Shown here one piece after another: positions 1,573-16,725 of a stretch of DNA of 32,000 nucleotides (positions are counted from its first letter, which is position 1; each line of letters starts with the position of its first letter). Source of the stretch: Archaeoglobus fulgidus DSM 4304 (lineage in GTDB: Archaea > Halobacteriota > Archaeoglobi > Archaeoglobales > Archaeoglobaceae). Made by a program: the position numbers and the translations under genes. The notes under the pieces are model-generated. The model was given only the letters and a program-made list of their open reading frames with translations, did no database searches and was not told the DNA's origin. The stretch lies in the NCBI RefSeq assembly GCF_000008665.1, contig NC_000917.1, positions 150,001 to 182,000 on the forward strand, written 5' to 3'.

Positions 1573-2226
1573 ATGAGGCTTTTGCCAAAAATGGGGGGCG
1601 TGATAAGCATCTGGTTAACCTCAACGCTCCTGGCGATGAAATACCTCACACCTCTTAATTTAGCAATAGCGCTGCTTTCCCTGCTGTCAGTAAACCCGCT
1701 CATGTATATGAAGAAAGATTTTTCACTCGTTTTTCCAATTCTCCTTTCAGCGTTGGCAGCATACATCCTCTACCTTAACCCCACTACCATCTACTTCCTC
1801 CTCGCTTACTCGATCCTCTTCATAGCGCTCAAATTCGTGAATGAGTGGAGAATTGAGACGAAAATCGGTGCCTTCGCTCTCACCTTCCCCTTTCCGATGA
1901 TGGCCTTGGCTTACGGGGCGGGCCTGATGGAAATATTGGCACCATTAACCCTCTTGTTCTCTCTAACAGCCTTCAACCTTTTTCTTGCTGACTCAAGAAT
2001 TTACGGCAGAGTTTCGGCAAAGAACTACCTCGCGATTATACCCCTCGCCCTTATTTTCTACATCCTCTCCCATCCAGTCCTTGCGGCAGCTGTGACAGCA
2101 GCGGCGATAGTTGTAACGGTAAAAGCAAACAGCATTAGTGTTAGGAGCTTCGGATTTTCACTGCTTTTTCTGAATCTGCTCTTCGTCGTCGGGTTTTTAG
2201 CTCTGGACTTTGCTGGGCTTCTCTAA
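1573..2226 (+). CDS. Polytopic integral membrane protein, unknown function
   Basis: A 217-aa ORF that is almost entirely hydrophobic, with about 6-7 predicted TM segments. I recognise no motif. The start is uncertain (ATG 1573 or 1591). Confidence 0.5.
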   Translation: MRLLPKMGGVISIWLTSTLLAMKYLTPLNLAIALLSLLSVNPLMYMKKDFSLVFPILLSALAAYILYLNPTTIYFLLAYSILFIALKFVNEWRIETKIGAFALTFPFPMMALAYGAGLMEILAPLTLLFSLTAFNLFLADSRIYGRVSAKNYLAIIPLALIFYILSHPVLAAAVTAAAIVVTVKANSISVRSFGFSLLFLNLLFVVGFLALDFAGLL

Positions 2227-2676
2227 AAATTTTCTAAAAGCCCTTGCGAAGGTCGCATAAATTTCTGATTTCTCCTCAACACACTTAGCAAATTCTAAAA
2301 ACCAGTCTCTAAAATCGGAGAGAAGCTCTGGATTCATTGAAAGAAACTCAAGCTCGACTGATATGTGGTCTGGTGGTTCAGACTCGTAAACGTAGTTAAG
2401 ACCGTATTTCGAGTATAGCTCAGCTGCTCTGAGGGATGCTTTTCCGTAAACGCTCCCCTCCTCGAAGTAGGATTGGTATGGAGGGCACGGAACTGAGGGG
2501 TGTGAGGAAATAAAAAGAGAAGTGTATTCAACCTGAAGTGCTTCAATGTCAACCTGTTTCAAAGTTTGAGCAATCTCTGTAAGGCCAATGCCCTCTGCAA
2601 GCGCTATGGCTTTTCCGAGCTTGTCCTCATCAGGATAGGAAAAAATCAGCGAGAAAAGCTTAAGATGCTCTCTCAT
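2197..2676 (-). CDS. TorD/DmsD/NarJ-family redox-enzyme maturation chaperone
   Basis: 159 aa with an EYTSLF...PCPPYQSYF signature typical of the family. Its start overlaps the stop of the upstream NrfD gene. It is the last gene of the Mo-enzyme operon. Confidence 0.7.
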   Translation of the reverse strand: MREHLKLFSLIFSYPDEDKLGKAIALAEGIGLTEIAQTLKQVDIEALQVEYTSLFISSHPSVPCPPYQSYFEEGSVYGKASLRAAELYSKYGLNYVYESEPPDHISVELEFLSMNPELLSDFRDWFLEFAKCVEEKSEIYATFARAFRKFLEKPSKVQS

Positions 2677-3896
2677 GCCTTCTCACCCACATCTTTGAGA
2701 GGAAGAGCCTTAAGCAGAGTCAGCAGGACCAAACTCAGTACGGCAACAATTCCGACCGTTACTGCAATTTCAACTGCAGACGGTGAGTAGCTCCAGTAAT
2801 CCACGAAAACAGGCTGAGGGCTGAACAGGTCACCCCTCACCTCTCCTACAGCGATAGGATACTGCCATCCCTCGATGCTGAAGGCAAAGACGTTGTAGGC
2901 AGGAGGCATCAGTAGAAATCTGTGGAGGAGGACACCCACGTTGACAGACACGCTACCAATAATTAGCCTTGCACGGGTCGTCGCCTTGGCCAGCACGATG
3001 GCTGAGAAGAGGATAAACAGAACTTCGAGGAAGTGTATGTGGAGGTAATCTCTGAAGACAATAGCCAGAGCCTCGTATTCCAGCCCTTCTCCCCACCAGT
3101 ATCTGACGAGGAAGTCGTTGTAGTACATGAAAAGGAGAGCAGCGGATGATGCTGCAGAAATCTTGCCGAGAAGTCTGTAGGCATTTTTAAGCCTATCTTC
3201 ATAACCATAAACGAAGAGGGATGCAAGTATTACAACGGCAGGCCCTGTGGCGATTGCAGCTGCGATGAAAGTTGGGGCGAGCAGCCCGCCATACCACCAC
3301 GGCCTCGAAAGTTGCGTTGCGAGAACCCAAGCCGTCACGGTGTGGATGAGTATGGCGAAGGGGAGGGCTATCGGAGCAAGAACTTTCGCATACTTCTCGG
3401 ACTTTTGCCTTAAAGACTCTAAATCAGTCGCATCTTTCTTTAGAAAACCTAAGACTCCCCTCTCAGCAATTCTCGGCATCAGAAGAACGTAGGTGTAAAT
3501 GGCCGAAAGGAAAGCGTAGGTTGAGAGTACTATCAGGTCCCAGGGTAGAAGAGATGAGAAGTTGGGGTAAAGAAACATGTTCAGTATTCTGTCCACCCTA
3601 CCGAGGTCGGGTAGAACCATAACCATCGCACCGACAGCGAAGATGAAGGCAGTCGTTGATGCCACTGGCGCTATGGGCTTGAATTCTCTTGCCCCGAAGA
3701 TGTATATCGCAGATGACACAACAAGACCACCAGCAGCCGTTCCGACAAAAAATGCCCACATCGCAATGTAGAGCCCCCAGCTAAAGGGATTCCGCATGTT
3801 CGTTACTATCAATCCTTCCTGAAGCTGATACAGCCATGCTGCCATTCCCAGTGCTGCTAAGGCAACCAGAACCGCAACTAAAGCTTTAAACTTCAC
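2673..3896 (-). CDS. NrfD/PsrC-type membrane anchor subunit of the molybdopterin oxidoreductase
   Basis: 407 aa and polytopic. It has the NrfD-like motif WGLYIAMWAFFVGTAAGG. Its boundaries overlap both neighbouring genes, which suggests translational coupling. Confidence 0.8.
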   Translation of the reverse strand: MKFKALVAVLVALAALGMAAWLYQLQEGLIVTNMRNPFSWGLYIAMWAFFVGTAAGGLVVSSAIYIFGAREFKPIAPVASTTAFIFAVGAMVMVLPDLGRVDRILNMFLYPNFSSLLPWDLIVLSTYAFLSAIYTYVLLMPRIAERGVLGFLKKDATDLESLRQKSEKYAKVLAPIALPFAILIHTVTAWVLATQLSRPWWYGGLLAPTFIAAAIATGPAVVILASLFVYGYEDRLKNAYRLLGKISAASSAALLFMYYNDFLVRYWWGEGLEYEALAIVFRDYLHIHFLEVLFILFSAIVLAKATTRARLIIGSVSVNVGVLLHRFLLMPPAYNVFAFSIEGWQYPIAVGEVRGDLFSPQPVFVDYWSYSPSAVEIAVTVGIVAVLSLVLLTLLKALPLKDVGEKA

Positions 3897-4648
3897 AATT
3901 TCACCTCCAGTTCTGGAGAATACCTAACTTCTCCTCTTTCAGCCCTTTTCATAGGTAAAAGGTAGAACACCTTTGGCTCCGTCCCCAAATCTTCCAGCAA
4001 TCTCGTGTGTGCCCCGTCCCTCAACACCTTTGAAATCTCACTGTTAGGGTCATCGAGGTCTCCGAAAATCCTCGCATTCCCTGGACAGCCTCTAACACAT
4101 GCGGGCTTTAGACCTTTGTCAATATACTGCACACAGAATGTGCACTTTTCAACCACTCCTCTTGGTCTCTTGGGCGTGTAAACCAGCCTTCCGTCTTTGG
4201 TTCTGTGATCAATGGGATATCCGTGCCTGTATCCTTCTACGTACTCACCTTCAAATCCTGCCGCCTTGAAACCTTTCTCTACCGCCTTATCCTTATCTTC
4301 CCAGTTAAACTGCCTCACACCATAAGGGCAGGCAGTCATGCAGTACCTGCAGCCAATGCACCTCTCAAAGTCCACCAGCACAACCCCGTCCTCTCTTTTC
4401 CACGTTGCACCGACGGGGCATACCTTAACGCAGGGTGGATTATCGCAATGCATGCAGGGGACTGGGAGGTAAAGTTCAGTCAGATTGGGGTAATCTCCCG
4501 ACGGAGTTTGATGTTCTTTGCTCCCTACGGTCTCAACTCTGTGCCACCAAGTGCCCGGCGGGAGAGAGTTGTGAATTTTGCAAATAACAGCGCAGCTTCT
4601 GCAGCCTATACATCTGTTCAGGTCTATAACCATTCCATACCTCACCAT
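3893..4648 (-). CDS. Four-cluster [4Fe-4S] ferredoxin-type electron-transfer subunit (PsrB/DmsB/NrfC-like)
   Basis: 251 aa starting MVIDLNRCIGCRSCAVIC, with further CxxCxxCxxxCP-type motifs (CMHCDNPPCVKVCP, CIGCRYCMTACP, CTFC...C). Confidence 0.85.
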   Translation of the reverse strand: MVRYGMVIDLNRCIGCRSCAVICKIHNSLPPGTWWHRVETVGSKEHQTPSGDYPNLTELYLPVPCMHCDNPPCVKVCPVGATWKREDGVVLVDFERCIGCRYCMTACPYGVRQFNWEDKDKAVEKGFKAAGFEGEYVEGYRHGYPIDHRTKDGRLVYTPKRPRGVVEKCTFCVQYIDKGLKPACVRGCPGNARIFGDLDDPNSEISKVLRDGAHTRLLEDLGTEPKVFYLLPMKRAERGEVRYSPELEVKL

Positions 4649-4652
4649 GCAC

Positions 4653-7343
4653 CTACACCTCCACCTTCCTTACTGCACACGCAACCTCATTCCACGCTGT
4701 AGTGGGTTCCCAGATGCCGGGGACGAAGTAGACAATATGGGTTGGTTTAATCCAGGGGAAGGTCAGGCTGTTGTAGGATGTTCCTCTCAAATATCTGCTC
4801 CACCAGCCCTGCTCGAATATGATTACCGAGGGATGCAGTCCCTCATCCAGTACGGCATAGCCGTATACCCTGCCCCTGTCGTTGTAAACCTCTACAAGGT
4901 CTCCCTCAGCAATTCCGTTCTCCTTTGCTGTTATAGGATGCAACCAAACTCTCGGCCTGAAGTCCTGAAGCTCAAGCATCGTTATGTTGTTGCTGTGGGT
5001 GGAGTGAACTCTGTAGAGCGCGTTTCTGGTGATGTAAAAGTACCTGTATTTCCTCTTCGCTTCGGGATTCAGCCTGTACTCAGTATCAACAAACGGGTCT
5101 TTGTGAACTGGCAGAGTTTCCCCAAGGTCTATGAAAACGTCCTCCTCTTTGTAAAACTCAATTCTTCCACTTTTCACAAATCTCGCCGTTTTTTGAAGTG
5201 GAACAGGATAGGACTGGGGTGGGAAAGGCTTTTTAAGGTTTATCTGCTCCCAGAATGGAATCTGTCTTTTATTAGGGGTTGGCAGGTTCAATCTCACAGG
5301 TCCTTTTAGCAGTTTTTCAAGAGTTATCCCTTCCACAAGCTCGCCACCAGTCTTGAGCATGAGCTCGACAGCTTTCAGGGAGGCCTTATGTGCAATATTC
5401 CTTGCCAACCTGAAACTCCACGTCCCATCCTTTCTCGCCCTCTCCTCCTCATCGAAAAGCTCTGGATCAGGATAGAACTCAGAAATGCTGGATTTGAGCT
5501 CTTCATCGTTCCACTTCTGGACGAGTCTTTTGGCCAGCTCCTTGAAAATCCATATTTCTGGCATGCATTCGAAAAGTGGCTCGATCGCAGGCTGCTGGAG
5601 CTGGACGTAGGGATGGAGAATCGTTGCTGTTAGCTCGTACTTCTCGTACCATGCGACACCGGGCAACACCACATCTGCCCACTTGCATGAGGTCGTCATC
5701 TGGAAGTCTATCGCAACTATGAGTTCCAAGTCTCCATTCTCGGCGTATTCAATCATCCTGTTAGCCATGTTGTGCTGGTCGAAGGGATTGTTCCAGCCGA
5801 AGAGGAAAGCTTTAACATCGTTCTTAGGATAGGGGGTTTCTCTGTTGTATTTTTTGAACTCCTCGCTTTGCCTGTATTCCTTGTTCATCCAGAGGAGGTA
5901 GGTTACCCATTTATTCTTCCTACCCTTGAAGCTCCACCATGCTCCAAGAGGCCAGCGAATCTTGAACTGTCCAGCATATGTGGATATTCCTGCGCCACTC
6001 TTTCCGAGATTTCCTGTTAATGCAACAATCAGCGCCAGAGCCCTTCCCTTCAGGTCACCGTGGTACCACTGGTAATTACTCGCACCGTAGATGATGTGCA
6101 AAGGCTTTACGGTTGCCATTTCAAATGCAAGTCTTTTGATCATATCCACGTACTCGCCCTTATTTCTGTTTGGAGGAGTAATAATCTCAGCAACTTTTTC
6201 GGGGGTGTACTTCTGAACCTCCTCCTTTAGAAGCTGGAAAACCGGTTTTACCTTCACCCTTTTTCCGTCAACAAGCTCTACCTCAAATTCTCCTTCTATC
6301 GCAGGCTCAAAATCCCTCTCAAGGGTTTCTGGATTCACCGGCTTGAATCCCTCGTTGACGTCGTAAACGACGAACACATCTCTGTATTCTGGAACGTTTA
6401 GTTTTCCAGCAATCTCCTCAAGTTCCTTTACTTCCTTCGCCATCAGCCTTTTCTGGGTGTCCATTCTCACCAGCAGCGGCATGTCGGTGTATGTTTTGAT
6501 GAATTCCTCGTCATAGAGTCTGTTTTCAATTATCTCTCTCGCTATTGCCAGCGCGAAAGCTGAGTCGGTTGAAGGATTTATCTGCACCCATTCATCAGCC
6601 TTAGCTGCTGTGGGGCTGAAGTTCGGGTCCACTACAACAACCTTCGCCCCCCTCTCCGCAGCGATGTTTACGAACTTTGCATCTGGAAGGCGGGTGACCA
6701 TTATATTGGAGCCGAAAATGGCTATATACTTCGAGTTGGTCCATTCAAGGGACTCGAACTCCTCCGTTTGAACTCCGAAGGTTTGTGACCAGAAGGCTGG
6801 CAGGTCTCCATTCATCGTATAGCCGTGCAAAGCACTCCATCCGAACATGGATGCGAGTCTCATCATAGCCCCTTTGTGAACGTAGCCAGTCCCTGGAACC
6901 TGAATCGAAATTGCCACCGATTCCGGACCGTGTCGCTTCATTATGTCAGCCAGCCTGTCTGCAACGTAATCCAAAGCCTCATCCCAGCTCACAGCTTTGA
7001 ATTTCCCCTCTCCTCTTTTTCCCACCCTGATTAACGGCCTTTTCAACCTGTCCGGACCGTAAATCAAGTTCATCATTGACTGTCCCCTGAGACATCCCCT
7101 TGGGTTATATTCAGGCTCAGGATAATCTGCTGCCTGAGTGAGTGTCTCGATTCTGCCGTTGTAAACAAGCGCATCAAAACCGCATGCTCCCGTGCAGTTT
7201 GGTGAGCAAACCGACCTCACAGTTTTGATTTCGCCTGCATTTTGCTGCACTCCACGACTTTTCTGGAAGTAGCCAAGACCTAAACCGGAAGCAAAAGCAG
7301 TCGCTGCAGAGAGCTTGATAAAGTCTCTCCTGCTTACCTTCAT
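4653..7343 (-). CDS. Tat-exported bis-MGD molybdopterin oxidoreductase, catalytic subunit (DMSO reductase superfamily)
   Basis: 896 aa. It has a twin-arginine signal (MKVSRRDFIKLSAATAFASG) and an N-terminal Fe-S motif (CSPNCTGAC...C). Its length and operon context (FeS, NrfD and TorD genes) fit the family. Confidence 0.9.
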   Translation of the reverse strand: MKVSRRDFIKLSAATAFASGLGLGYFQKSRGVQQNAGEIKTVRSVCSPNCTGACGFDALVYNGRIETLTQAADYPEPEYNPRGCLRGQSMMNLIYGPDRLKRPLIRVGKRGEGKFKAVSWDEALDYVADRLADIMKRHGPESVAISIQVPGTGYVHKGAMMRLASMFGWSALHGYTMNGDLPAFWSQTFGVQTEEFESLEWTNSKYIAIFGSNIMVTRLPDAKFVNIAAERGAKVVVVDPNFSPTAAKADEWVQINPSTDSAFALAIAREIIENRLYDEEFIKTYTDMPLLVRMDTQKRLMAKEVKELEEIAGKLNVPEYRDVFVVYDVNEGFKPVNPETLERDFEPAIEGEFEVELVDGKRVKVKPVFQLLKEEVQKYTPEKVAEIITPPNRNKGEYVDMIKRLAFEMATVKPLHIIYGASNYQWYHGDLKGRALALIVALTGNLGKSGAGISTYAGQFKIRWPLGAWWSFKGRKNKWVTYLLWMNKEYRQSEEFKKYNRETPYPKNDVKAFLFGWNNPFDQHNMANRMIEYAENGDLELIVAIDFQMTTSCKWADVVLPGVAWYEKYELTATILHPYVQLQQPAIEPLFECMPEIWIFKELAKRLVQKWNDEELKSSISEFYPDPELFDEEERARKDGTWSFRLARNIAHKASLKAVELMLKTGGELVEGITLEKLLKGPVRLNLPTPNKRQIPFWEQINLKKPFPPQSYPVPLQKTARFVKSGRIEFYKEEDVFIDLGETLPVHKDPFVDTEYRLNPEAKRKYRYFYITRNALYRVHSTHSNNITMLELQDFRPRVWLHPITAKENGIAEGDLVEVYNDRGRVYGYAVLDEGLHPSVIIFEQGWWSRYLRGTSYNSLTFPWIKPTHIVYFVPGIWEPTTAWNEVACAVRKVEV

Positions 7344-7401: not shown

Positions 7402-7971
7402 CTACTCAAAATACCCCTTTCCAGCACACATAAAGCAAACCATCCTTCCATCAACCTCAGCGACGTAATCAGATGGCTGAAGCTCCCCGCATTTCTCACA
7501 TTCAACTATTGGCTCCTTTGTCCCACCCACAGGTATCGTCAGCCTTATTTCTCTAACCTCAAAGTATTCAGGCTCAAGGTTCAGAAACTCCTCAGCCAGC
7601 CTTTTCTCCTCCTCTTTGTTCAGCTTTCCAAGCCTGTAGAGGAATTTCTTTATCAGCTCAGACTTCTTGGCCGCCTCTTTCTTAATCGTCACCCTATAGC
7701 CTTCTCTGGTGTCAAACCTCACAATCGCCAAAGCGAGCTTTCCGTAGTCCTTCACAATCAAATTCCTGTTGCCGGGTGTGGTTCCTGCAACGACCTGCAG
7801 AGCATCGGGCAGGCACATTGCTGTCTCGGCAATCCCAACAAGCCCCTTCCCTCTGAAGTTCACACCAAGCTTTTCGTATGCAATTTGGGCCATCTTTATG
7901 CCCAGAGCCACTCCGGGGCTGAGGTGGCTGTGAAGCTTTGCCGCAAACTCAAGCATCTCGTTTCTGTCCAT
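7402..7971 (-). CDS. FmdE-family protein with C-terminal zinc ribbon
   Basis: 189 aa. The motif HSHLSPGVALGIKMA resembles the FmdE motif FHGHxCPGxAxG. The C-terminus has CEKCG...CFMC (CxxC...CxxC). Confidence 0.65.
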   Translation of the reverse strand: MDRNEMLEFAAKLHSHLSPGVALGIKMAQIAYEKLGVNFRGKGLVGIAETAMCLPDALQVVAGTTPGNRNLIVKDYGKLALAIVRFDTREGYRVTIKKEAAKKSELIKKFLYRLGKLNKEEEKRLAEEFLNLEPEYFEVREIRLTIPVGGTKEPIVECEKCGELQPSDYVAEVDGRMVCFMCAGKGYFE

Positions 7972-8093
7972 GGACTCTTAAAAACTCATTAGCTTTAAAT
8001 TATTTTTGAACGGTGTTAAGTTGCCTAATTCGATTATTTTTAATCATGTAAAAACACCGTTAAATTTAAATACAGCGTTTGGTTTGAAAAATC

Positions 8094-9376
8094 ATGGAAA
8101 TTGTGTATTGGGAAGAGCTGGGAAAGAGACTGGGAAGTTTCGAGGTGAAGAAGGATAAGGTCAGCTACAGGATTGCTCCCTTCACGCAGTGGAAGGTTCT
8201 CGTCGCAGATGAGAGGCGTGAGGTTGAGAAGGGGAAGCCTGAGCTTATAAGGCTGAGAGTGGCAGGATTCCTCAGAACACAATCGTTGCTCCGCTCTCAA
8301 TCGCCCCCCATGCGACGGGCACAACAGTTGACGTTGTTGAGGAAAAGCCGAGCAGAGTTGAGGAGGAGAAGAAGATAACTCACGCAGTCTTCCTGCCCGC
8401 TGAAGATGGAGTTGTGGAGGAAGGAGATATCGTTGGCATACTGAAGGTTTTCTTTGTCAGAACCGGGGCAATTGGAAAGAGACTGGGATTCAAGGCTGGA
8501 GACATAAGGATAAGGGAGGAGATAGTTCAGGCGAACCTGACGTGGAAGGAAGATGGAGAGATAAGGAGGGAGAGAATAAAGACGAGGTTTTTCGGCTACT
8601 TCAGGAGCCATGTTGCCGAGTGGGAGCCGGTGATAGCTGCAGAATCTGTTGATGTTGAGAGGGGTGAGGTTGCGAGAATAAAGATAAAGGAGATAACGCT
8701 GCCTGAATACACCGTCATAACGCCTCTCTTCATCAGGAGGCATGCCTTGGGCTCTTTAATTGATGTTGTTCAGCAGGGAAAGAGGAGGAAGGTTGAGGAG
8801 AAGAAGAGAATTGGCGAGGCAATTTTCCTGCCCGCAAGAAGCGGGAGAGTTGAGAAGGGAGACCTGCTGGGTGTGATTAATGTTTACTACATAGCAACAG
8901 AGAACTTCAGCGTTGGCAGAAGGGAAAAGGATGAGGTTCTTGCAAAGGTTGTTGATGAGAGGGGAAGAAAGGAGTTCAGAATCAAGCCCTTCGCCTACAG
9001 GAGGAAGACCATAGCGAGATGGGAGCCCATTGTTGCGGCAGAGAACCGAAAGGTCAGGAAGGGGGAGGTTGAGGAAATTGCGATAGAACCAATTAGCCTT
9101 GAGGAGAACACCATTGTCTATCCCCTCTACGTGATGAGAAACGCCTTTGGAAGTGTGGTTGATGTTGTTGAGGAAAGGCCGAGAAGAGTCGAGGAAAGAA
9201 GGGAGATTATAAAGGCAGTCTTCCTGCCAGTCTTCGACGGAGAAATAAGGAAGGGGCAGCTGCTTGGAGTTATGAACGTTTATAGCATTGAGGTTCAGCC
9301 CTACGAGGTGATATGGCGGTGGCTTGAGGAGTGGCAGGGAGAGTTCAGGAGATTGTTTGCAGAGGTGGTTGGATGA
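8094..9376 (+). pseudogene. Protein built from three tandem ~125-145-aa repeats, split by a frameshift near 8265
   Basis: ORFs 8094..8378 and 8414..9376 lie in different frames. The second frame is open from about 8243 and reads IPQNTIVAPLSIAPHATGTTVDVVEEKPSRVEEEKKITHAVFLPAEDGVVEEGDIVGILKVFFV. That completes a first copy of the unit seen twice more downstream: WEP(V/I)(I/V)AAE..V.(R/K)GEV..I.I..I.L.E.T(V/I)..PL....A.GS..DVV....R.VEE...I..A(I/V)FLP...G.(V/I).KG.LLGV.NVY.I. Confidence 0.6.
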
Positions 9377-10087: not shown

Positions 10088-10993
10088 TCATGCAGTCTTC
10101 GTTTTAACGAGCTTAACCAGCCCCTCAACCTCATCCAAAAACCAGCGCTCGAATTCAGGTCTTTTGACAGCCCTTGCTATATCTTCTTCCAGCTTAAGAA
10201 CTTTTGAGACCTCCAACCATTTTTCCCTTCTGTAAGCTATGATTTCTCCGTCATCAAAGGCTTCAAGAGCTTTTTCGGTCTCCTCCTCACTTCTGAACTT
10301 TAAGCTTGTGTATATGGCCACTCTATCCGAAACGTCACCTCTGAAGACGTAAACGCTGACGATTTTGCCGTTGATATAGCCCATGAAGTGGTCAGTGGCT
10401 TTATCAAACCCCATGGACATGAACTTCTTTTTGACGTGTTCGGGGAGGTCGTCAGTCAAACATCCACAAAGGGCCTTCAGCTTCCCTGTCACAAGCTCCC
10501 TTTCGAATCTTCTGAAGAGTTCAGCTGGAAAGCCCACCACGACCTCCTCGCTGCTGTAACCTCCGAGAACCCTCGCCCCCTCGCACAGAAAGGAGACGTT
10601 GGGCTCCCCCTCTTTGATAACATCCGCCGTTGCCTCACCGCAAACCGCTCTGCTACCGCTAAACCTTGCTACCAGTAAATCTCCAAAAACCTGCCTGAAA
10701 GCTCTTGAAATCTCCATCACCTTTTCGGGGGTAGCTATGACCAGCACGACATCGTAATCTCCCTTTTCATTGTAGGGCTCGATGAGGATGCCCTGAGCCT
10801 CAAATCCCTTCAGAGGCTCAAGAAAAAGGGAAACCTCTGCTCCAGCACAGTTGAAGGCCTTTGCAATTACCCTCCTGTTTGTCGCCTCTCTCACTGCGGA
10901 GCAGAACCTGTCCATGACTTCTCCATCCTCGGTTTCAAGCAGCTTCACTCCAACAGGGCTGTATCTGAGCTGAAAATACCTCCTGAAGCTCAA
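10088..10993 (-). CDS. DUF169-like protein with ~80-aa C-terminal extension
   Basis: 301 aa. The N-terminal ~215 aa (YSPVGVKLL..., Cys-containing core) resemble DUF169/COG2043 proteins from memory. The TTG start overlaps the SepCysS stop (TTGA) and is preceded by GGAGGTGGA. Confidence 0.5.
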   Translation of the reverse strand: MSFRRYFQLRYSPVGVKLLETEDGEVMDRFCSAVREATNRRVIAKAFNCAGAEVSLFLEPLKGFEAQGILIEPYNEKGDYDVVLVIATPEKVMEISRAFRQVFGDLLVARFSGSRAVCGEATADVIKEGEPNVSFLCEGARVLGGYSSEEVVVGFPAELFRRFERELVTGKLKALCGCLTDDLPEHVKKKFMSMGFDKATDHFMGYINGKIVSVYVFRGDVSDRVAIYTSLKFRSEEETEKALEAFDDGEIIAYRREKWLEVSKVLKLEEDIARAVKRPEFERWFLDEVEGLVKLVKTKTA

Positions 10994-12162
10994 TCTTCCA
11001 CCTCCAGGCCATATTTCTCGGCAATCTCCTTGAAGGCCTCAGCAACCCTCTCAACCTCCTCCCAGCTCAGGCCGTAAACGTTGAGCTTAACGTTCCTCGT
11101 CATTCCCGGCTGCACACCAAAAATTCCCCTCTCCTTAAGCTCGTGATAGAGGAAGTATCCCTTCCGCCTGTGCTTTTTAGCTATTAAGTTAAAGGACGGA
11201 GTTTCGAAGTTCATGAGCGTGTGGTTCTTCGGCCTCTCCCCCAGAAGCATAACACCCTCAATCTTTTCCATCTCCTCAACAAACCACCTTGCCTTCTCAA
11301 CCTCCTCCTTCCATCTCTTCACCCTCTCCTTTACTACTGGAAAGGAGGCCATAAGGGTTACAAGGGGAAGGCCGTAAACTGGAGAGCAGCCGAAAAGGGC
11401 AACCTCCTTCTTGGTGAAAGCCCTGCCGCTCCAGTTTCCCCTCACTTCAGAAACCCTGAAAACCCTTTCAGCGAACTCAAAAGTTGTTGCGAGAATTCCG
11501 ATGGGTGCTGTTGCGGCCCAGCTTTTGTGCCCGCTTGCAACAATAAAGTCGCATCCCGTTTCCCTTCCACTCACCTCCATAATCCCTGAGGTGTAGGCTG
11601 TGTTCAAAATAAGCGGAATCCCGTAATCCCTGCATATTTCCGCAACCTTCTTAGCATCTGCCAGATTCCCGTATTTGTAGTCGGCGTGGGTTAGCAGTGC
11701 AACGGCGGGATAATCTCCGGTCTCCTCCTTAACCTTCTCGAAAACATCCGTATAACTCTCAGCCTCTATCCTGAACTCAGGATAGCCCGTGTTGGGAACC
11801 TCGTAAACTCTCAGGCCATTGAGTTCTGCTGCAATGTAGGTAGTGTAGTGGGCGAGGGAGTCCACCACCAAAGCCCCCTTAAACCCGCTCATCGCCACGA
11901 ACTTCGCATGCCTCGCCCCAGCGGTGAACCTCACTTCATCCATACCGAGAAACTCCGCAACCTCTTCCTTGAACCTCTTGACTGGCGGTTTGTCCAGCAG
12001 GTCAACTCTGCCCTCAAGGCAGATATCACACATGCTGTAGCCATCCCCCCACTCTAAAAGCACCTTCCTCGCCTCTTCAGTCAGAATTCCTCCTCTTTGA
12101 ATGGGATGAACGTTAATCATTCCCTTTGATGGTCTCAGCAGTTCCATAGGCTTACTTAACAT
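10990..12162 (-). CDS. pscS: O-phosphoseryl-tRNA:Cys-tRNA synthase (SepCysS) paralog, PLP-dependent
   Basis: Strong resemblance to archaeal SepCysS. Shared motifs include LLEWGDGYSMCDIC (two Cys), GARHAKF, AHYTTY, the PLP-Lys motif ASGHKSWAA, the third Cys in LFGCS, and MASFPVVKERVKRWKEEVEKARWF. The start may instead be the internal ATG at 12147 (MELLRPSKGMINVHP), which gives an N-terminal length closer to the canonical enzyme. Confidence 0.85.
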   Translation of the reverse strand: MLSKPMELLRPSKGMINVHPIQRGGILTEEARKVLLEWGDGYSMCDICLEGRVDLLDKPPVKRFKEEVAEFLGMDEVRFTAGARHAKFVAMSGFKGALVVDSLAHYTTYIAAELNGLRVYEVPNTGYPEFRIEAESYTDVFEKVKEETGDYPAVALLTHADYKYGNLADAKKVAEICRDYGIPLILNTAYTSGIMEVSGRETGCDFIVASGHKSWAATAPIGILATTFEFAERVFRVSEVRGNWSGRAFTKKEVALFGCSPVYGLPLVTLMASFPVVKERVKRWKEEVEKARWFVEEMEKIEGVMLLGERPKNHTLMNFETPSFNLIAKKHRRKGYFLYHELKERGIFGVQPGMTRNVKLNVYGLSWEEVERVAEAFKEIAEKYGLEVED

Positions 12163-12170
12163 TGTTAAGT
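12154..12170. promoter_or_regulatory. Perfect 17-bp palindrome ACTTAACAtTGTTAAGT at the 5' end of the SepCysS paralog
   Basis: The palindrome centre coincides with the first ATG (12162) and lies 15 nt upstream of the alternative ATG (12147). Confidence 0.6.
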
Positions 12171-12173
12171 TTT

Positions 12174-13214
12174 TTAAGTTTTATCCCGAAGCAGTTTCCT
12201 TCCGATGTTCAGACAGTCCAAGTAAAAGTTTCCTGAGGGGGAAAATTCGAAATCAATTTCGGAGCACATGCAGACGCACGCCGGATTCTTTGTAAACCTG
12301 AACTCCTCAAGCAGGTTGAAATCCGGCATTGGAATGACAAGGGGATAGAAGCCAATAACTTCCTTGCACCTCCTGAAACCCTCGGCAGCAGGGATATAAA
12401 TTGCCTCATCTGCGAGCTCAAAGACCGCCTCAATCTGGGCGTAGGAGGCGAAAATTCCCGGGATGAAGAGGTAAAGCTGGCTGTAGTATGTTTTTGCTGA
12501 AGGAAAAACTTTCTTCTCTGCGCTGAGGTCTTCCAGCTCTTTAAAGCTGATTTGGTGGGAGTTGCGTTTGTAGGTCTCTCCGTCGTATCCAAGCTTTTCC
12601 CTTAGCAGCCTGCCATTCTTCTCTCTCAGAACAAAGAGGGTGTCGAAGATTCTGCCGAAGCTCTCACGATTTAGGTGCAAAAGGGAGTGATGAACGAAGT
12701 CGGCGAGAAAATCGGAAATATCTGTCGTGCGGTTTTTTATCCCTGACCTTTCGGCGATACTGGCGTGGAGATTGAAGGCTGGCTCGTCGCTGCCACAAAG
12801 CTTTATGTCCGCAATGCACTGCCTTTCGACGAAGTCTTCAGCAACTAAGTACTTTCTCACCTCCCATCCCCTTTTCCTTCTTGCAAACTTTGGCATCACA
12901 AGGCTGTACTTGAATGGATTTCTGGTCGTGAAGCCGTCACACAGATACGTGAGGTCAAAACGATCAAGGTCGTATGATCTGCAGAGAACCTCGGCAACGA
13001 TATTTTCGAAGTGTAAGCCAAAAAACTGCCTCCACATACCCCCTCCACTGAAATCAAAGCTGTAATCGTCAACGTCAAAGCCAAAGGTTTTCAAAAAATA
13101 GCTCCGCGCCCTGTAACCACACCTCTCCCTCGCTCTGTACTCCTTCCTCAGGTCATCATAGCTGTTAACGTAGGGCAGAGAAAAATCAAACGAAGATGAA
13201 GTTGTCACCGCCAA
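12174..13214 (-). CDS. Hypothetical 346-aa protein, no confident family assignment
   Basis: A long ORF co-oriented with the sulfur cluster. Its start overlaps the upstream gene by 29 nt. It has a weak PD-(D/E)xK-like pattern ([14 protein letters not shown]) and a C-terminal Cys cluster (CVCMC...C). Confidence 0.5.
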
Positions 13215-13575
13215 GAACCTCTGTCAGCCCGCCGACCTTGTCCACCCATTCCGGTAGCTCATCCTCTCTGAGACCGAAAAGCTCCATGCTGCCGGAGCAC
13301 GCAATGATTCGCATCCGTCCGAACGACTTTCCGAGATTCACAAGTTGCTCCAGCTCTCTCAAAATACCTCTTTTGATGCCGCTCTCAATTGCCTGTCTTT
13401 CCTCATCTCCATCGAAAACCTTCTCTCCTCTGCATATATTTCTCAGAGCCCAGTAGGTGAGAAAAACCTGCACTTCCTCGCCCATTGATGCGAGAACCGA
13501 TGCTATGCTGAATGCATGGTAAATTCTGTCCCACTGTCCGCTGTGGACTATGATTCCGTTAATTCTGTCAGACAT
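13186..13575 (-). CDS. DsrE/DsrF-like sulfur-relay family protein (COG2210-type)
   Basis: [25 protein letters not shown]...[12 protein letters not shown] shows a DsrE-fold pattern with a conserved Cys. I prefer ATG 13575 over the tracked GTG 13584 because a TATA-like box and the palindrome lie directly upstream. Confidence 0.7.
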
Positions 13576-13576
13576 A

Positions 13577-13591
13577 ATGAACACTGTTAAT
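13577..13591. promoter_or_regulatory. Degenerate copy of the same palindrome (atGAACAcTGTTAAt), 2-16 nt upstream of the dsrE-like ATG at 13575
   Basis: The AACAnTGTT core is conserved, and 11 of 14 arm positions match the other two sites. The position relative to the ATG and a TATA-like A/T box is the same as at 16363. Confidence 0.45.
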
Positions 13592-13609
13592 TTCTGAATA
13601 AAAGCTTTA

Positions 13610-13798
13610 TCAGAGCAACCTTCTCGTTCCGCTCTTCAACTGCTCCTGCCTTCTCATCCACCCCGCCTTCCACTTCTGGTAGCAGCCTCTGCTGCAGAAG
13701 GTTACAGGGTGGTCAACGCAGCAGGTTTTGACAACAATCGGGTCCCTTGCGATTTTACCGCAGACATCACAGCGATGCTTTGCCGTACTCTTGTCCAG
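13610..13798 (-). CDS. TRASH / zf-FCS-type metal-binding domain with no canonical start codon; probably the C-terminal part of the upstream HTH protein
   Basis: This is not in the ORF track. The minus-strand frame reads ...FELDKSTAKHRCDVCGKIARDPIVVKTCCVDHPVTFCSRGCYQKWKAGWMRRQEQLKSGTRRLL and stops at 13610-13612. The pattern CxxC-x21-CxxxC matches the TRASH signature C-X2-C-X19-22-C-X3-C. The frame is open back to 13900 but has no ATG, GTG or TTG ahead of the domain. Confidence 0.55.
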   Translation of the reverse strand: MDKSTAKHRCDVCGKIARDPIVVKTCCVDHPVTFCSRGCYQKWKAGWMRRQEQLKSGTRRLL

Positions 13799-13799
13799 C

Positions 13800-14138
13800 T
13801 CAAACGGAATACATCTCTTCCTCGATGAGCCCCTCCTCTCTGAGAATCTCGCAAACTCTGCAGAGGTAATCCACCTCGTCTTCGATGGTAATTCTTCCTG
13901 CTACGAGGTCATCCACGAGCTCTCTTACAATTCTCTTCGCCCCATCGGATTTCTTTATGATGTCCAGCCCCCTCTGTCCCCTTTTGCTCTTGAGGTACTG
14001 CGAAACTGCTGCCTGTGTCAACCCGAGCAAATCTGCAACATCCTTTACCCTGTAACCTCTATCTATTAGCTCAAGCGCAACCTTCGCCCTCAGGGCGGGG
14101 AGTACGTATTTCACCATCATCACGCAGTGCGGTTTCAT
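13800..14138 (-). CDS. Small HTH transcriptional regulator (COG2522-like)
   Basis: 112 aa with a helix-turn-helix segment (VKDVADLLGLTQAAVSQYLKSKRG). The start lies 3 nt after the iscU stop. It is embedded in the sulfur/Fe-S operon. Confidence 0.7.
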   Translation of the reverse strand: MKPHCVMMVKYVLPALRAKVALELIDRGYRVKDVADLLGLTQAAVSQYLKSKRGQRGLDIIKKSDGAKRIVRELVDDLVAGRITIEDEVDYLCRVCEILREEGLIEEEMYSV

Positions 14139-14141
14139 GGC

Positions 14142-14603
14142 TCAAGCCTCACAATACTCTCCGTGGTCGTCCATCTCACCCTTCTCCATCTTCTCAAGTT
14201 CCTTTTCCAGACCTAACTCTTTTATCTTATCAATTTTTCCATTTTTTCTAAAGTAGTCAACTATTGCCCTCCTCAGCGCATCTGCGGCCAAGTTGGAGCA
14301 GTGCATTTTCTGCTTCGGCAAACCGCCAAGGGCTTCGGCAACAGCATCTCTTGTAATTTTCAGAGCTTCCTCTATAGTTTTCCCCTTCGCCATCTCAGTG
14401 GCCATGCTGCTGGTTGCAATGGCAGCAGCGCAGCCAAAGGTCTGGAACTTGATATCCTCAATTCTGTTGTCCTTCACTTTAATGTAAATGGTCATCAAAT
14501 CCCCGCAAACTGGATTGCCGACAGTTCCTACACCATCAGCATCCTCAATTTTTCCAACATTCCTCGGATTCTGGAAGTGGTCGAAAACCTTATCACTATA
14601 CAT
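14142..14603 (-). CDS. iscU: IscU/NifU-type Fe-S cluster scaffold with acidic/Lys-rich C-terminal tail
   Basis: MYSDKVFDHFQNPRNVG...GNPVCGDLM...FGCAAAIATSS...MHCSNLA carries the three scaffold Cys. ATG 14603 is preceded by GGAGGTGA. The tracked start at 14612 is a GTG. Confidence 0.9.
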   Translation of the reverse strand: MYSDKVFDHFQNPRNVGKIEDADGVGTVGNPVCGDLMTIYIKVKDNRIEDIKFQTFGCAAAIATSSMATEMAKGKTIEEALKITRDAVAEALGGLPKQKMHCSNLAADALRRAIVDYFRKNGKIDKIKELGLEKELEKMEKGEMDDHGEYCEA

Positions 14604-14608
14604 AGCCC

Positions 14609-15757
14609 TCACCTCCTGTAGAGAGGAGACATGCTCCTCAGCCTCTCAATCACGCCCGGCAGCACCTCAAGCAGCCTGTCAACATCTTCGTCAGTGTTGT
14701 ATCTGCCCAGCGTCAAAAGCAGAGTGCCGTGCGCCTCCTCATGCTTCAGCCCACACGCCATGAGAACATGGCTTGGCTGCAAGGTTTTTGAGCTGCACGC
14801 CGAGCCGGTTGAAGCCTGAATTCCCGCCATGTCAAGGCTCAAAACGATTGACTCTCCCTCAATGTAGCTGAATCTCACGTTTACATTGTTGGGCAGCCTT
14901 TTTTCAGGATGGCCGTTTAGGTAGCTTTCCTCAATTTTCAGAACGTTATCGATTATCCTATCTCTCAACCTTCTGAGCCTCCCAGCCTCCTCTCCCCACT
15001 CCTTTGCGGTGATTTCAGCGGCTTTACCAAATCCAACTATCGCAGGAACGTTTTCACTACCACTCCTGAGCCCTTTTTCCTGCCCACCTCCGAGAATTAT
15101 CGGCTGCAACCTCACTCCCTGCCTTACCCAAAGCGCCCCCACTCCTTTGGGGCCGTAAATGTCGTTGCTTGAAATAGTCAGCATATCAGCACCGATCTTC
15201 TCAACATCCACCTCAATTTGCCCGAGAGAGGCTGTAGCATCAACGTGCAGAGCTGCTCTACCGTTAATTATTTCTGAAATCTCCTTTATGGGCTGAATCG
15301 TTCCAATTTCGTTGTTTGCATGCTGAACAGAAACAAGAATCGTGTCTTCCCTGATTTTCTCCTCAATAAATTCAAGGTCGACGGTGCCGTATTTGTCCAC
15401 TGGGATGAATTCAACCTCAAATCCCTGCTTCTGAAGATACTTTGCCGGATTTATGACGGACATGTGCTCAATTGATGAAACGAGAACGTGCTTACCCTTT
15501 CTGGCGTTTCTCATCGCATATCCAATGAGAGCGAGGTTGTTGGACTCCGTGGCACCTGAGGTGAAAACGATGTCCCCGCCACCACCATTTATCAGCTCCG
15601 AAATCTTCCCCCTTGCCTCCTCAATCACCTCTCTTGCTTTAAAGCCGTAGGAGTGGACTGAGGAAGGATTTCCGAAGTGCTCGGTCATGTAGGGAAGCAT
15701 TGCTTCAACAACCCTCTCATCCACAGGCTTTGTGGAGGCGTAGTCAAAGTAGGGCAT
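14609..15757 (-). CDS. iscS: IscS/NifS-like class V aminotransferase-fold protein in which the PLP-binding Lys is replaced by Asp
   Basis: From [16 protein letters not shown]... (ATG 15757, preceded by GAGGTGGTGG) the protein is 382 aa. The Cys loop GSACSS is present. The canonical S-x-H-K-x-x-G-P-K-G motif reads [10 protein letters not shown]. The tracked upstream start (15823) would overlap the preceding gene. Confidence 0.9.
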
Positions 15758-15767
15758 TTCCACCACC

Positions 15768-16127
15768 TCAGAAATAGAGCACACCATCCGCCTCAAGAAC
15801 GAGCTGGTTGAGCGTTGCAGCACCTACAATCTTGACACCATCAACAATCTCTCCCTTATCAATCCCAAGGAGTTCGGAGCTTCTGTCGCAAACCATCATC
15901 TCAACCCCGCTTTCCCTTGCCTGTTTCATTAACTCACTCAGCGGCGGAAAGTTTCCCATCTTAATTTTCTCAGCATTATCCTTTTTAACAACTGTTACAC
16001 CCTTGATAACAAAGTAAATGATTGCATCATCTCCCATGGCCTTGGCGGTCATTGCGAGGACGAAGGGAGCGTAGAGCCTTTCGGGAGTGTCGATACCGCT
16101 CGTCTGAACGTAAAGCAGCTTCGCCAT
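15768..16127 (-). CDS. DsrE-family sulfur-relay protein
   Basis: 119 aa. [25 protein letters not shown]...MMVCDRS fits the DsrE fold. GGAGGTGA lies upstream, and the gene abuts the tusA-like stop. Confidence 0.75.
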
Positions 16128-16361
16128 CTACCTCACCTCCTTTACAATTTTTACAACAAACCTCAAAACCCCATCCTCAAGCTTTTCAAACTCGACAAGC
16201 TCCTGACCGAGCTTTTTAACCAAAACTGGGATGTCCGATTCTGCAGCAGGGTCGTCTGCAAGAATTTCTATAATTTCCCCAACCTCTGACTCTTCCATTG
16301 CCTTCCTCGCCCTGAATACGGGTTCGGGGCAGTAGAGGCCGATACAGTCAACCTGTTTCAT
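16128..16361 (-). CDS. tusA: TusA/SirA-like sulfur carrier
   Basis: 77 aa with the diagnostic CPxP motif (DCIGLYCPEPV). It is the first gene of the minus-strand cluster. Confidence 0.8.
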   Translation of the reverse strand: MKQVDCIGLYCPEPVFRARKAMEESEVGEIIEILADDPAAESDIPVLVKKLGQELVEFEKLEDGVLRFVVKIVKEVR

Positions 16362-16362
16362 A

Positions 16363-16379
16363 ACTTAACATTGTTAAGG
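16363..16379. promoter_or_regulatory. Palindromic operator candidate ACTTAACAtTGTTAAGg, between a TATA-like box (16384-16393) and the tusA ATG
   Basis: A perfect 15-bp palindrome, CTTAACA-T-TGTTAAG. The identical 16-mer recurs at 12154-12169. Confidence 0.6.
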
Positions 16380-16725
16380 TAACTATTTAAAAGTTTCGGG
16401 AAAAAAAATAGTTTCCACATAGGGAGTCAAAATGAAAAATAATTACCTGCCACGAGAGGATGATCACCAAAGCAAGCCCTTTAATAAATCCAGGTAACTC
16501 GGCAGGCTGGATGAAAATGTTGATAAAGTAGGATTTCAGATTTTAGGACAATACCTTCTTCTGGGAAGCGTATTTAAGACAATAGTTGCAGATAAAACGA
16601 TTGATTTTGGAGATGAAACGTATCGTCAGCTTATGAAACGTTCTGAACCATCTGGCAGCTTCAATTTCAGACGTTTTAACGGGCAAGACCTATTGCCTTT
16701 CAGGTTAAAGCAGTTATGAGGTGAA

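Follow-up and report, generated by a model that had tools for sequence, protein, structure and literature searches.

A conserved palindrome in a sulfur gene cluster of Archaeoglobus fulgidus as the likely operator of a cysteine-containing helix-turn-helix protein

In Archaeoglobus fulgidus DSM 4304, genes for sulfur relay and for iron-sulfur (Fe-S) cluster assembly form a cluster in which the same short palindrome precedes three transcription units. Which factor does this palindrome serve, and with what effect on the genes behind it? The cluster was analyzed within a 32,000-nt stretch of the genome (positions 150,001 to 182,000 of NC_000917.1), hereafter called the window, whose own numbering is used throughout; all genes of the cluster are on the minus strand. 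Protein families were assigned by Pfam and NCBIfam profile matches, and names were obtained by exact protein look-ups. As argued below, the palindrome, TTAAC-N3-GTTAA, is likely to be the operator of a 112-amino-acid (aa) helix-turn-helix (HTH) protein encoded in the cluster itself (13800-14138). This protein would act as an autoregulated repressor of three units, namely tusA-dsrE-iscS-iscU-HTH followed by a small Cys-rich open reading frame (ORF), dsrE2-AF_0182, and the pair formed by a SepCysS paralogue (SepCysS-2) and a DUF169 gene.

The palindrome and its placement in three promoters

A first-pass annotation of this DNA had drawn attention to an identical, palindromic 16-mer occurring twice, and ACTTAACATTGTTAAG is indeed present at 12154-12169 and at 16363-16378. 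The former copy is part of a 17-bp palindrome with 8-bp arms (12154-12170), while the latter has 7-bp arms (16364-16378). A degenerate third copy, which had been placed in front of a dsrE-like ATG, was found as well: TGAACACTGTTAA, at 13578-13590, differs from TTAACANTGTTAA by one mismatch and lies 2 nt before the ATG at 13575. All three sites are dyad-symmetric, within the range of approximately 11 to 17 bp expected of an operator of this type, with one imperfect arm in the third. Allowing at most two mismatches, TTAACANTGTTAA matches the window at four positions (8007, 12156, 13578 and 16365), all four in 5' intergenic DNA; with ACTTAACATTGTTAAG and up to three mismatches, none of 100 shuffled sequences reached four matches. 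The annotation further held that an exact 16-mer repeat would not be expected by chance. The repeat is real, but this particular argument is weak, as the window contains five distinct repeated 16-mers, the operator pair included, and first-order Markov simulations yielded a mean of 0.43 repeated 16-mers, with at least one in 29% of the simulations. The significance of the palindrome rests on its dyad symmetry, its placement in promoters and its conservation in other genomes, and not on the 16-mer repeat alone. The other exact 16- to 17-mer pairs are found at 22715-22731/26151-26167, 19001/19979, 1497/30372 and 8655/27870. The first of these is an inverted repeat with each copy inside a plus-strand gene for an AMP-binding enzyme, and none of the four is palindromic or placed in a promoter in the way the operator is.

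All three sites, read on the gene strand, have a TATA-like box 1 to 6 nt upstream and an ATG 2 to 8 nt downstream, as do their orthologues. The proposed location between TATA box and start therefore stands, and this geometry is kept in seven tusA, three dsrE2 and three SepCysS-2-like promoters. Operator 1 (TTAACAATGTTAA, 16365-16377) lies in the tusA promoter, 6 nt after the box cTTTTAAATAg (16384-16393) and 3 nt before the ATG at 16361. Operator 2 (TTAACAGTGTTCA, 13578-13590) follows the box CTTTTATT (13597-13604) of the dsrE2 promoter by 6 nt; an A/T box occupies the same position in two relatives (L001 and L003; comparison loci are designated by L and a number). Operator 3, with the same sequence as operator 1 (12156-12168), belongs to the SepCysS-2 promoter and is located 1 nt after an A/T box, taaaaCTTAAAAAA (12170-12183), and 8 nt before the ATG at 12147; the TATA-like box from which the 1-nt gap was counted is CTTAAAAAA. 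The boxes were read from the sequence. In all three units the center of the TATA box is approximately 25 to 26 nt from the ATG. Because this is the usual distance between TATA box and transcription start in archaea, all three units look leaderless, with the site overlapping the start region; the start sites are predicted from this spacing. Furthermore, the T-rich boxes at 13597-13604 and 12170-12183 could double as oligo-T terminators of the units upstream: the former lies 6 nt after the stop codon of the small Cys-rich ORF, and the latter overlaps the last codons and the stop of AF_0182.

One point of the annotation on this promoter probably does not hold. It had taken an ATG at 12162, covered by the palindrome, as the first ATG of the SepCysS paralogue, but this is probably not the start. 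Initiation at 12147 is most likely, because the orthologue in L081 lacks the ATG within the palindrome and starts 8 nt after the site, in agreement with the 385-aa form in RefSeq.

Conservation of the site and its association with the HTH family

The comparison set consisted of 80 loci fetched with the HTH protein as query, supplemented with loci of close homologues; none of the returned loci came from A. fulgidus itself. The 80 loci span Archaeoglobi, Bathyarchaeia, Nitrososphaeria, Methanobacteriaceae, Methanocellales, ANME-2, Hadarchaeota and other lineages. The unit from tusA to the small ORF is kept in six further Archaeoglobus genomes (L001 to L004, L153, which is A. neptunius, and L154). 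When the seven tusA promoters are aligned, invariant columns are found only in the TATA box (TAAATA), in the half-sites TTAAC and GTTAA, and in the ATG. The three central nucleotides vary (AAT, GCT, AAC), the flanks drift and the DNA upstream of the TATA box cannot be aligned, i.e., the half-sites are conserved amid diverging non-coding DNA. The dsrE2 site is retained in L001 and L003. In the closest SepCysS-2 orthologue (L081, 73% identity, likewise with DUF169 downstream), the site reads TTAACACCGTTAA, with a changed center and the same spacing of 1 nt to the box and 8 nt to the ATG, and in Geoglobus ahangari (L155) a site is located 2 nt before a SepCysS-like gene.

The core shared family-wide is TAAC-N3-GTTA, which can be extended to wTAACRnYGTTAw. 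Homologues from Archaeoglobi, Bathyarchaeia, Nitrososphaeria, methanogens and further lineages have it a short distance in front of their genes. Upstream regions of HTH homologues match TTAACNNNGTTAA with at most one mismatch in 14 of the 80 loci, compared with 1.3% of random windows. Between -500 and 0 of the homologues there are 28 exact cores, corresponding to 0.72 per kb against a background of about 0.03 per kb. Twenty-four cores fall between -150 and 0, where each of 11 palindromes with permuted half-sites occurs only zero to two times. Across 1.24 Mb of related loci, 60% of all cores are found in the 11.5% of the sequence that is outside called ORFs (p ~1e-30). Positions that were not part of the selection criterion are still informative (W at -6, R/Y at +/-1). 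Finally, the Cys-containing HTH protein is the only regulator common to all motif-bearing lineages, in loci that were fetched with that protein as query. Because the motif is most frequent directly upstream of the genes of this family while the permuted controls are negative, we read the HTH protein as the binder; such a pile-up is what one classically sees for an operator whose transcription factor regulates its own gene. A simple covariation between the variant of the recognition helix (TPAAITQY or TQAAVSQY) and the outer base of the site was considered and rejected.

The annotation had named an HTH or HTH-TRASH protein of the cluster as the obvious binder. Its HTH part gains support from the cores upstream of the homologues, but the fusion to TRASH is not retained. 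The HTH gene stops at 13800, the Cys-rich ORF is in another frame, and the two are separate genes in all relatives, so that neither a fusion nor a frameshift accounts for them. The Cys-rich ORF matches Pfam Arc_trans_TRASH (PF08394) with E = 2.4 in the window and with E = 0.0098 in the best orthologue, both below the 27-bit cutoff, and its product carries no DNA-binding signature. The idea of a sulfur-linked, autoregulated regulon is favored by the position of the HTH gene as fifth gene of the tusA unit and by the sulfur-related targets found across lineages.

By gene order the HTH protein is AF_0184 (UniProt O30053). Residues C5, C93 and C96 are invariant in the family, the recognition helix TQAAVSQY is nearly so, and many members carry an additional C-terminal CxxH...CxxC. 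The family comprises 1,576 clusters at 90% identity (E ≤ 1e-5), or 1,530 clusters at 50% identity (E ≤ 1e-10). It occurs across archaea and in a few bacteria, nearly always as stand-alone proteins of 100 to 135 aa with generic names; all 32 close homologues are stand-alone proteins of 88 to 134 aa. Relatives from Methanobacterium and Methanosphaera are among the hits. Matches of the A. fulgidus protein to Pfam and NCBIfam are all below threshold. The ArsR/SmtB profiles Pfam HTH_5 and NCBIfam NF033788 score 21.9 bits (cutoff 22) and 20.7 bits (cutoff 55), respectively, and no Rrf2/IscR match was obtained in either database. A sequence search found no relative in the PDB. The AlphaFold (AF2) model is all-helical, with a predicted local distance difference test score (pLDDT) of 88, and Foldseek returned no PDB match for it at E ≤ 0.001.

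A predicted repressor weighed against its alternatives

Directly established are the sites with their geometry and conservation, as well as the association of the family with the motif; from these we infer binding, dimerization, repression and the signal. A dimer of the HTH protein would contact the two half-sites, and two classes of promoter geometry can be distinguished. In class I (tusA, dsrE2, SepCysS-2, thrC-like genes, and some promoters of sulfite reductase-like (sir) and HTH genes), the TATA box is followed by the site and, within 0 to 8 nt, by the ATG. In class II, the site abuts the upstream side of the TATA box, about 31 nt before the ATG (sir of L157 and L158, and the distal of two sites in L156). 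The sir site of L155 and several sites in HTH promoters resemble class II and are further from the ATG; several of these HTH-promoter sites are at the same time class I for the divergent gene. At class I promoters the bound dimer would allow TBP and TFB to bind and would block the recruitment of RNA polymerase, since at the three promoters of the window the site occupies the stretch from the TATA box to the leaderless start; at class II promoters it would clash with TFB and the TFB recognition element (BRE). Archaeal repressors bound downstream of the TATA box, such as MDR1 of A. fulgidus, LrpA and Phr, block polymerase recruitment, and by analogy with these, repression is predicted for both geometries. 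The tusA unit would be autoregulated because it contains the regulator gene.

The sensor is likely to consist of C5, C93 and C96, which would respond to an Fe-S cluster or to the persulfide/sulfide state, and the regulon would open when the supply of sulfur or of Fe-S clusters is short. Sensing of Fe-S clusters or persulfide would be the most economical signal because of the Cys triad, the mixed iron and sulfur regulon and the fact that the gene follows iscS-iscU, and we presume the signal to be one of the two.

Several observations weigh against an autoregulated repressor of this kind. The Cys triad could bind a structural Zn ion instead of serving as a sensor. The SepCysS-2 orthologue of L082, which is 65% identical, lacks the site, and the Archaeoglobaceae HTH homologues of L005, L006, L009 to L013, L015 and L016 have no clear site in their own promoters. 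In addition, at some promoters the site is upstream of the TATA box, a placement compatible with activation (sir of L155, L157 and L158, the distal site of L156, and HTH genes of L018, L050 and L076). Together with the HTH promoters of L021 and L057, these have the site next to the upstream side of the box, where an activator could recruit TFB to the BRE, and dual-function archaeal regulators such as SurR and TrmBL1 exist. We nevertheless consider it unlikely that the HTH protein is mainly an activator or a dual regulator that switches on sulfur-assimilation genes upon a signal. The three sites in the window and most of those in Archaeoglobaceae are situated between TATA box and ATG and overlap the expected start, which is incompatible with activation, and several of the sites upstream of a TATA box are only 2 to 25 nt before the start of a divergent gene, a repressing position for that gene.

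We likewise give little credence to a genuine operator bound by another factor, be it a global regulator of the Lrp, TrmB or ArsR type, an HTH_3-CBS protein or the product of the Cys-rich ORF, with the AF_0184-type protein as a mere co-regulated passenger. Candidates of this kind do exist: the site-bearing metY-like gene of Bathyarchaeia has a divergent HTH_3+CBS neighbor in 14 to 18 loci, and PadR and ArsR genes are found upstream of tusA in L154. However, in the loci, which were fetched with the HTH protein as query, no other regulator accompanies the motif in all its lineages, and the motif peaks directly upstream of the HTH genes. Moreover, HTH_3-CBS genes are absent from the surroundings of the Archaeoglobus loci, and most loci lack the small Cys-rich ORF, which is devoid of a DNA-binding signature.

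It is highly improbable that the palindrome acts without a dedicated regulator, as a core-promoter feature (a proximal or initiator element of a promoter subclass) or as mere inherited sequence. It does overlap the region from -3 to -21 in which A/T-rich proximal elements occur, and close relatives share it partly by descent. Only the symmetric half-sites, including their G/C positions, are invariant, however, while center and flanks change; the same dyad is present at unrelated sulfur genes in distant phyla and in two positions relative to the TATA box, and other promoters in the window lack it.

A function of the palindrome as RNA, either as a 5' leader hairpin or as a terminator of the upstream unit, can be virtually dismissed because the stems are weak, Rfam has no match in the window and the half-sites do not covary: although operators 2 and 3 are just downstream of a preceding unit (ending at 13610 and 12174, respectively) and the arms can form a stem of 5 to 7 bp, the predicted hairpins amount to -3.0, none and -4.7 kcal/mol at 37 °C (z = +0.84, +0.64 and -1.53) in an organism that grows near 83 °C, 20 of 200 shuffles fold as well as or better than the best site, most of the site is upstream of the predicted start, and the half-sites are fixed in the tusA alignment, with no compensatory changes.

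Predicted regulon, gene context and relation to known regulators

The genes next to the sites in the different lineages point to a predicted regulon of sulfur assimilation and relay, Fe-S assembly and iron uptake. Directly downstream of the cores are the HTH gene itself (23 loci), Cys_Met_Meta_PP genes resembling O-acetylhomoserine sulfhydrylase (19), HTH_3+CBS genes (14), PALP genes resembling cysteine synthase (10) and TusA genes (5). The neighborhoods also hold MetX-like, CysE-like, SufS-like, IscU, SufC-like, FdhD, ThiI, ThiF, thioredoxin and CDGSH genes. Operons composed of a sulfite reductase-like gene, tusA and dsrE carry a site in five Archaeoglobaceae (L004, L155, L156, L157 and L158), and further Archaeoglobaceae sites are located at genes for FTR1 iron permeases and at thrC-like genes, each in two genomes. 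The sulfite reductase-like promoters discussed above are those of Geoglobus and of three further Archaeoglobaceae; no orthologue of this site-bearing gene in A. fulgidus was among the matches listed.

The first unit in A. fulgidus starts with tusA (AF_0188; 16128-16361; Pfam TusA, E = 4.6e-23), followed by genes for a dsrE-like sulfur carrier (15768-16127; Pfam DsrE, E = 1.2e-21), an iscS/nifS-like class-V aminotransferase (14609-15757; Pfam Aminotran_5, E = 5.4e-80) and an iscU/nifU-like scaffold (14142-14612; Pfam NifU_N, E = 2.9e-53), then by the HTH gene and the small Cys-rich ORF. The intergenic gaps in this unit measure 0 to 10 nt, and there are two gene overlaps. The start of iscU is probably the ATG at 14603, because the orthologue in L003 begins with MYSDK. 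The Cys-rich ORF (13610-13810, 66 codons) overlaps the stop codon of the HTH gene. It begins with an ATG (tATGccgtttga) in L001 to L004 and is annotated as a gene of 62 to 66 aa in L153 and L154, whereas the corresponding codon in A. fulgidus DSM 4304 is ATT; another lineage in which the HTH protein has the C-terminal YSV as well probably has the same change. Translation of the ORF would depend on a rare start or on translational coupling; alternatively, the ORF is inactive. Near HTH homologues in Bathyarchaeia (L019, L020 and L028) there are related small ORFs.

The second unit consists of the dsrE2-like gene (13186-13575; UniProt O30054; Pfam DrsE_2, E = 1.6e-11) and AF_0182 (12174-13214), which encodes a protein of 346 aa with no Pfam or NCBIfam match and no recognizable family. 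AF_0182 is conserved in Archaeoglobus and belongs to the operator-bearing dsrE2 unit. The third unit starts with the SepCysS paralogue, named 'O-phospho-L-seryl-tRNA:Cys-tRNA synthase 2' (UniProt O30056; 10990-12147, or to 12162 with the alternative start; NCBIfam TIGR02539, 511.7 bits, cutoff 365). The DUF169 gene (10088-10993; Pfam DUF169) overlaps it by 4 nt and is co-transcribed with it, and the same gene pair is present in L002, L081 and L155. In Geoglobus ahangari (L155, 1-6392), the SepCysS-like-DUF169 pair with its own site is divergent from an operon for sulfite reductase, TusA, a flavin adenine dinucleotide (FAD) protein, ferredoxin and ATP sulfurylase. Judging from this arrangement, assimilatory sulfur metabolism, and not tRNA-dependent cysteine synthesis, may be where the SepCysS paralogue and DUF169 act. 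A TauE gene precedes the pair in its unit, and the operator copies are located between the divergent units.

A fourth region, 8007-8063, which the annotation had not listed, is possibly regulated as well. It contains two degenerate copies, TGAACGGTGTTAA (8007-8019) and AAAACACCGTTAA (8051-8063), with one and two mismatches to TTAACNNNGTTAA, respectively, in the intergenic DNA between the divergent FmdE (7402-7971, minus strand) and DUF22 (from 8094, plus strand) genes; in L002, a perfect TTAACATTGTTAA is situated between the orthologous genes. FmdE heads an operon for a Psr/Ttr-like molybdoenzyme (2197-7343), with a catalytic subunit bearing a twin-arginine translocation (TAT) signal, a 4Fe-4S subunit, NrfD and a TorD-like chaperone. 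The DUF22 gene (8094-9376) is split into ORFs of 94 and 320 aa. Because the alignment of the 432-aa orthologue of L002 switches from frame 1 (up to ~8258) to frame 3 (from ~8249), a frameshift is placed near 8250-8260, which is either genuine or a sequencing error of the genome published in 1997.

Pairs of an operator and an autoregulated repressor are well known as such, while here the family, its motif and its regulon all seem new. Neither the literature (full text, including the locus tags AF0181-AF0188) nor Pfam, NCBIfam or the PDB yielded a description of the regulator or the motif; AmzR (bioRxiv 10.1101/2025.05.05.652248) was considered and is unrelated. MDR1, LrpA and Phr share with the system proposed here a palindromic operator over the transcription start, a regulator in its own operon and the expected block of RNA polymerase recruitment. 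AF_0184, however, has no DtxR, Lrp or Phr signature, and the motif assigned to it is different, as is its predicted sulfur and Fe-S regulon; MDR1 is a DtxR-family, metal-dependent repressor of an ATP-binding cassette (ABC) transporter operon. With the bacterial regulators IscR (Rrf2 family), SufR, CymR and CysB there is a functional analogy, that of a Cys-containing, presumably autoregulated protein encoded together with iscS-iscU and predicted to control Fe-S assembly and sulfur relay and, in further lineages, the synthesis of cysteine and methionine. AF_0184 differs from these in having no Rrf2 or LysR match in Pfam and no PDB match, in its Cys pattern (C5 ... C93-x2-C96) and in the archaeal TATA/TFB promoters on which it would act.

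SurR is the sulfur-responsive regulator of Thermococcales (mentioned in PMC12162507). AF_0184 resembles it as a presumed archaeal, sulfur-linked regulator with a CxxC motif and in the short dyad whose half-sites are 3 nt apart. SurR recognizes GTT-N3-AAC, whereas the AF_0184-type core is TAAC-N3-GTTA, with the order of the half-sites reversed. SurR moreover belongs to a different protein family with a different distribution, controls genes for hydrogenase and for energy conversion by S0 reduction, and responds to elemental sulfur. The nearest characterized relative may be ThiR, which Rodionov and colleagues reportedly described in 2017 as an archaeal thiamine regulator with an HTH and a ThiN domain (J Bacteriol 199:e00743-16, cited in PMC12029414). 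The two may share a DNA-binding module, because a Thaumarchaeota homologue (L080, 10001-10948; 57% identity over residues 1-53) has the same Cys-HTH module fused to ThiN (Pfam PF10120), a ThiR-like architecture. Upstream of this homologue there is no TAAC-N3-GTTA but a GATAA-N9-TTATC dyad. AF_0184 itself, at 112 aa, lacks ThiN, which only this distant homologue has, and its neighbors and predicted targets are sulfur genes rather than thiamine genes.

Little appears to be known of the regulation of sulfur assimilation and Fe-S biogenesis in archaea, including methanogens and Bathyarchaeia, whose Fe-S demand is very high. No transcription factor for the Fe/S pathways of methanogens is named in a survey of 2021 (PMC8351635), and full-text literature searches yielded none either. 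The present finding singles out a 112-aa protein and a 13-bp operator as a pair that can be tested, and adds a predicted regulon with coherent content in different phyla. It places poorly understood genes in a regulatory context, namely the SepCysS paralogue with DUF169, AF_0182, the DsrE2-like gene, FmdE/DUF22 and the small Cys-rich ORF, and it potentially provides archaeal genetics with a sulfur-responsive module of promoter and repressor that is portable. More tentatively, and with somewhat less than even confidence, AF_0184-type Cys-triad HTH proteins may be master regulators of archaeal sulfur assimilation and Fe-S biogenesis, sensing Fe-S clusters or persulfide via C5/C93/C96 and repressing genes for cysteine and homocysteine synthesis, sulfur relay, sulfite reduction, Fe-S scaffolds and iron uptake via TAAC-N3-GTTA. 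If so, they would be the archaeal counterpart of IscR, CymR and CysB combined.

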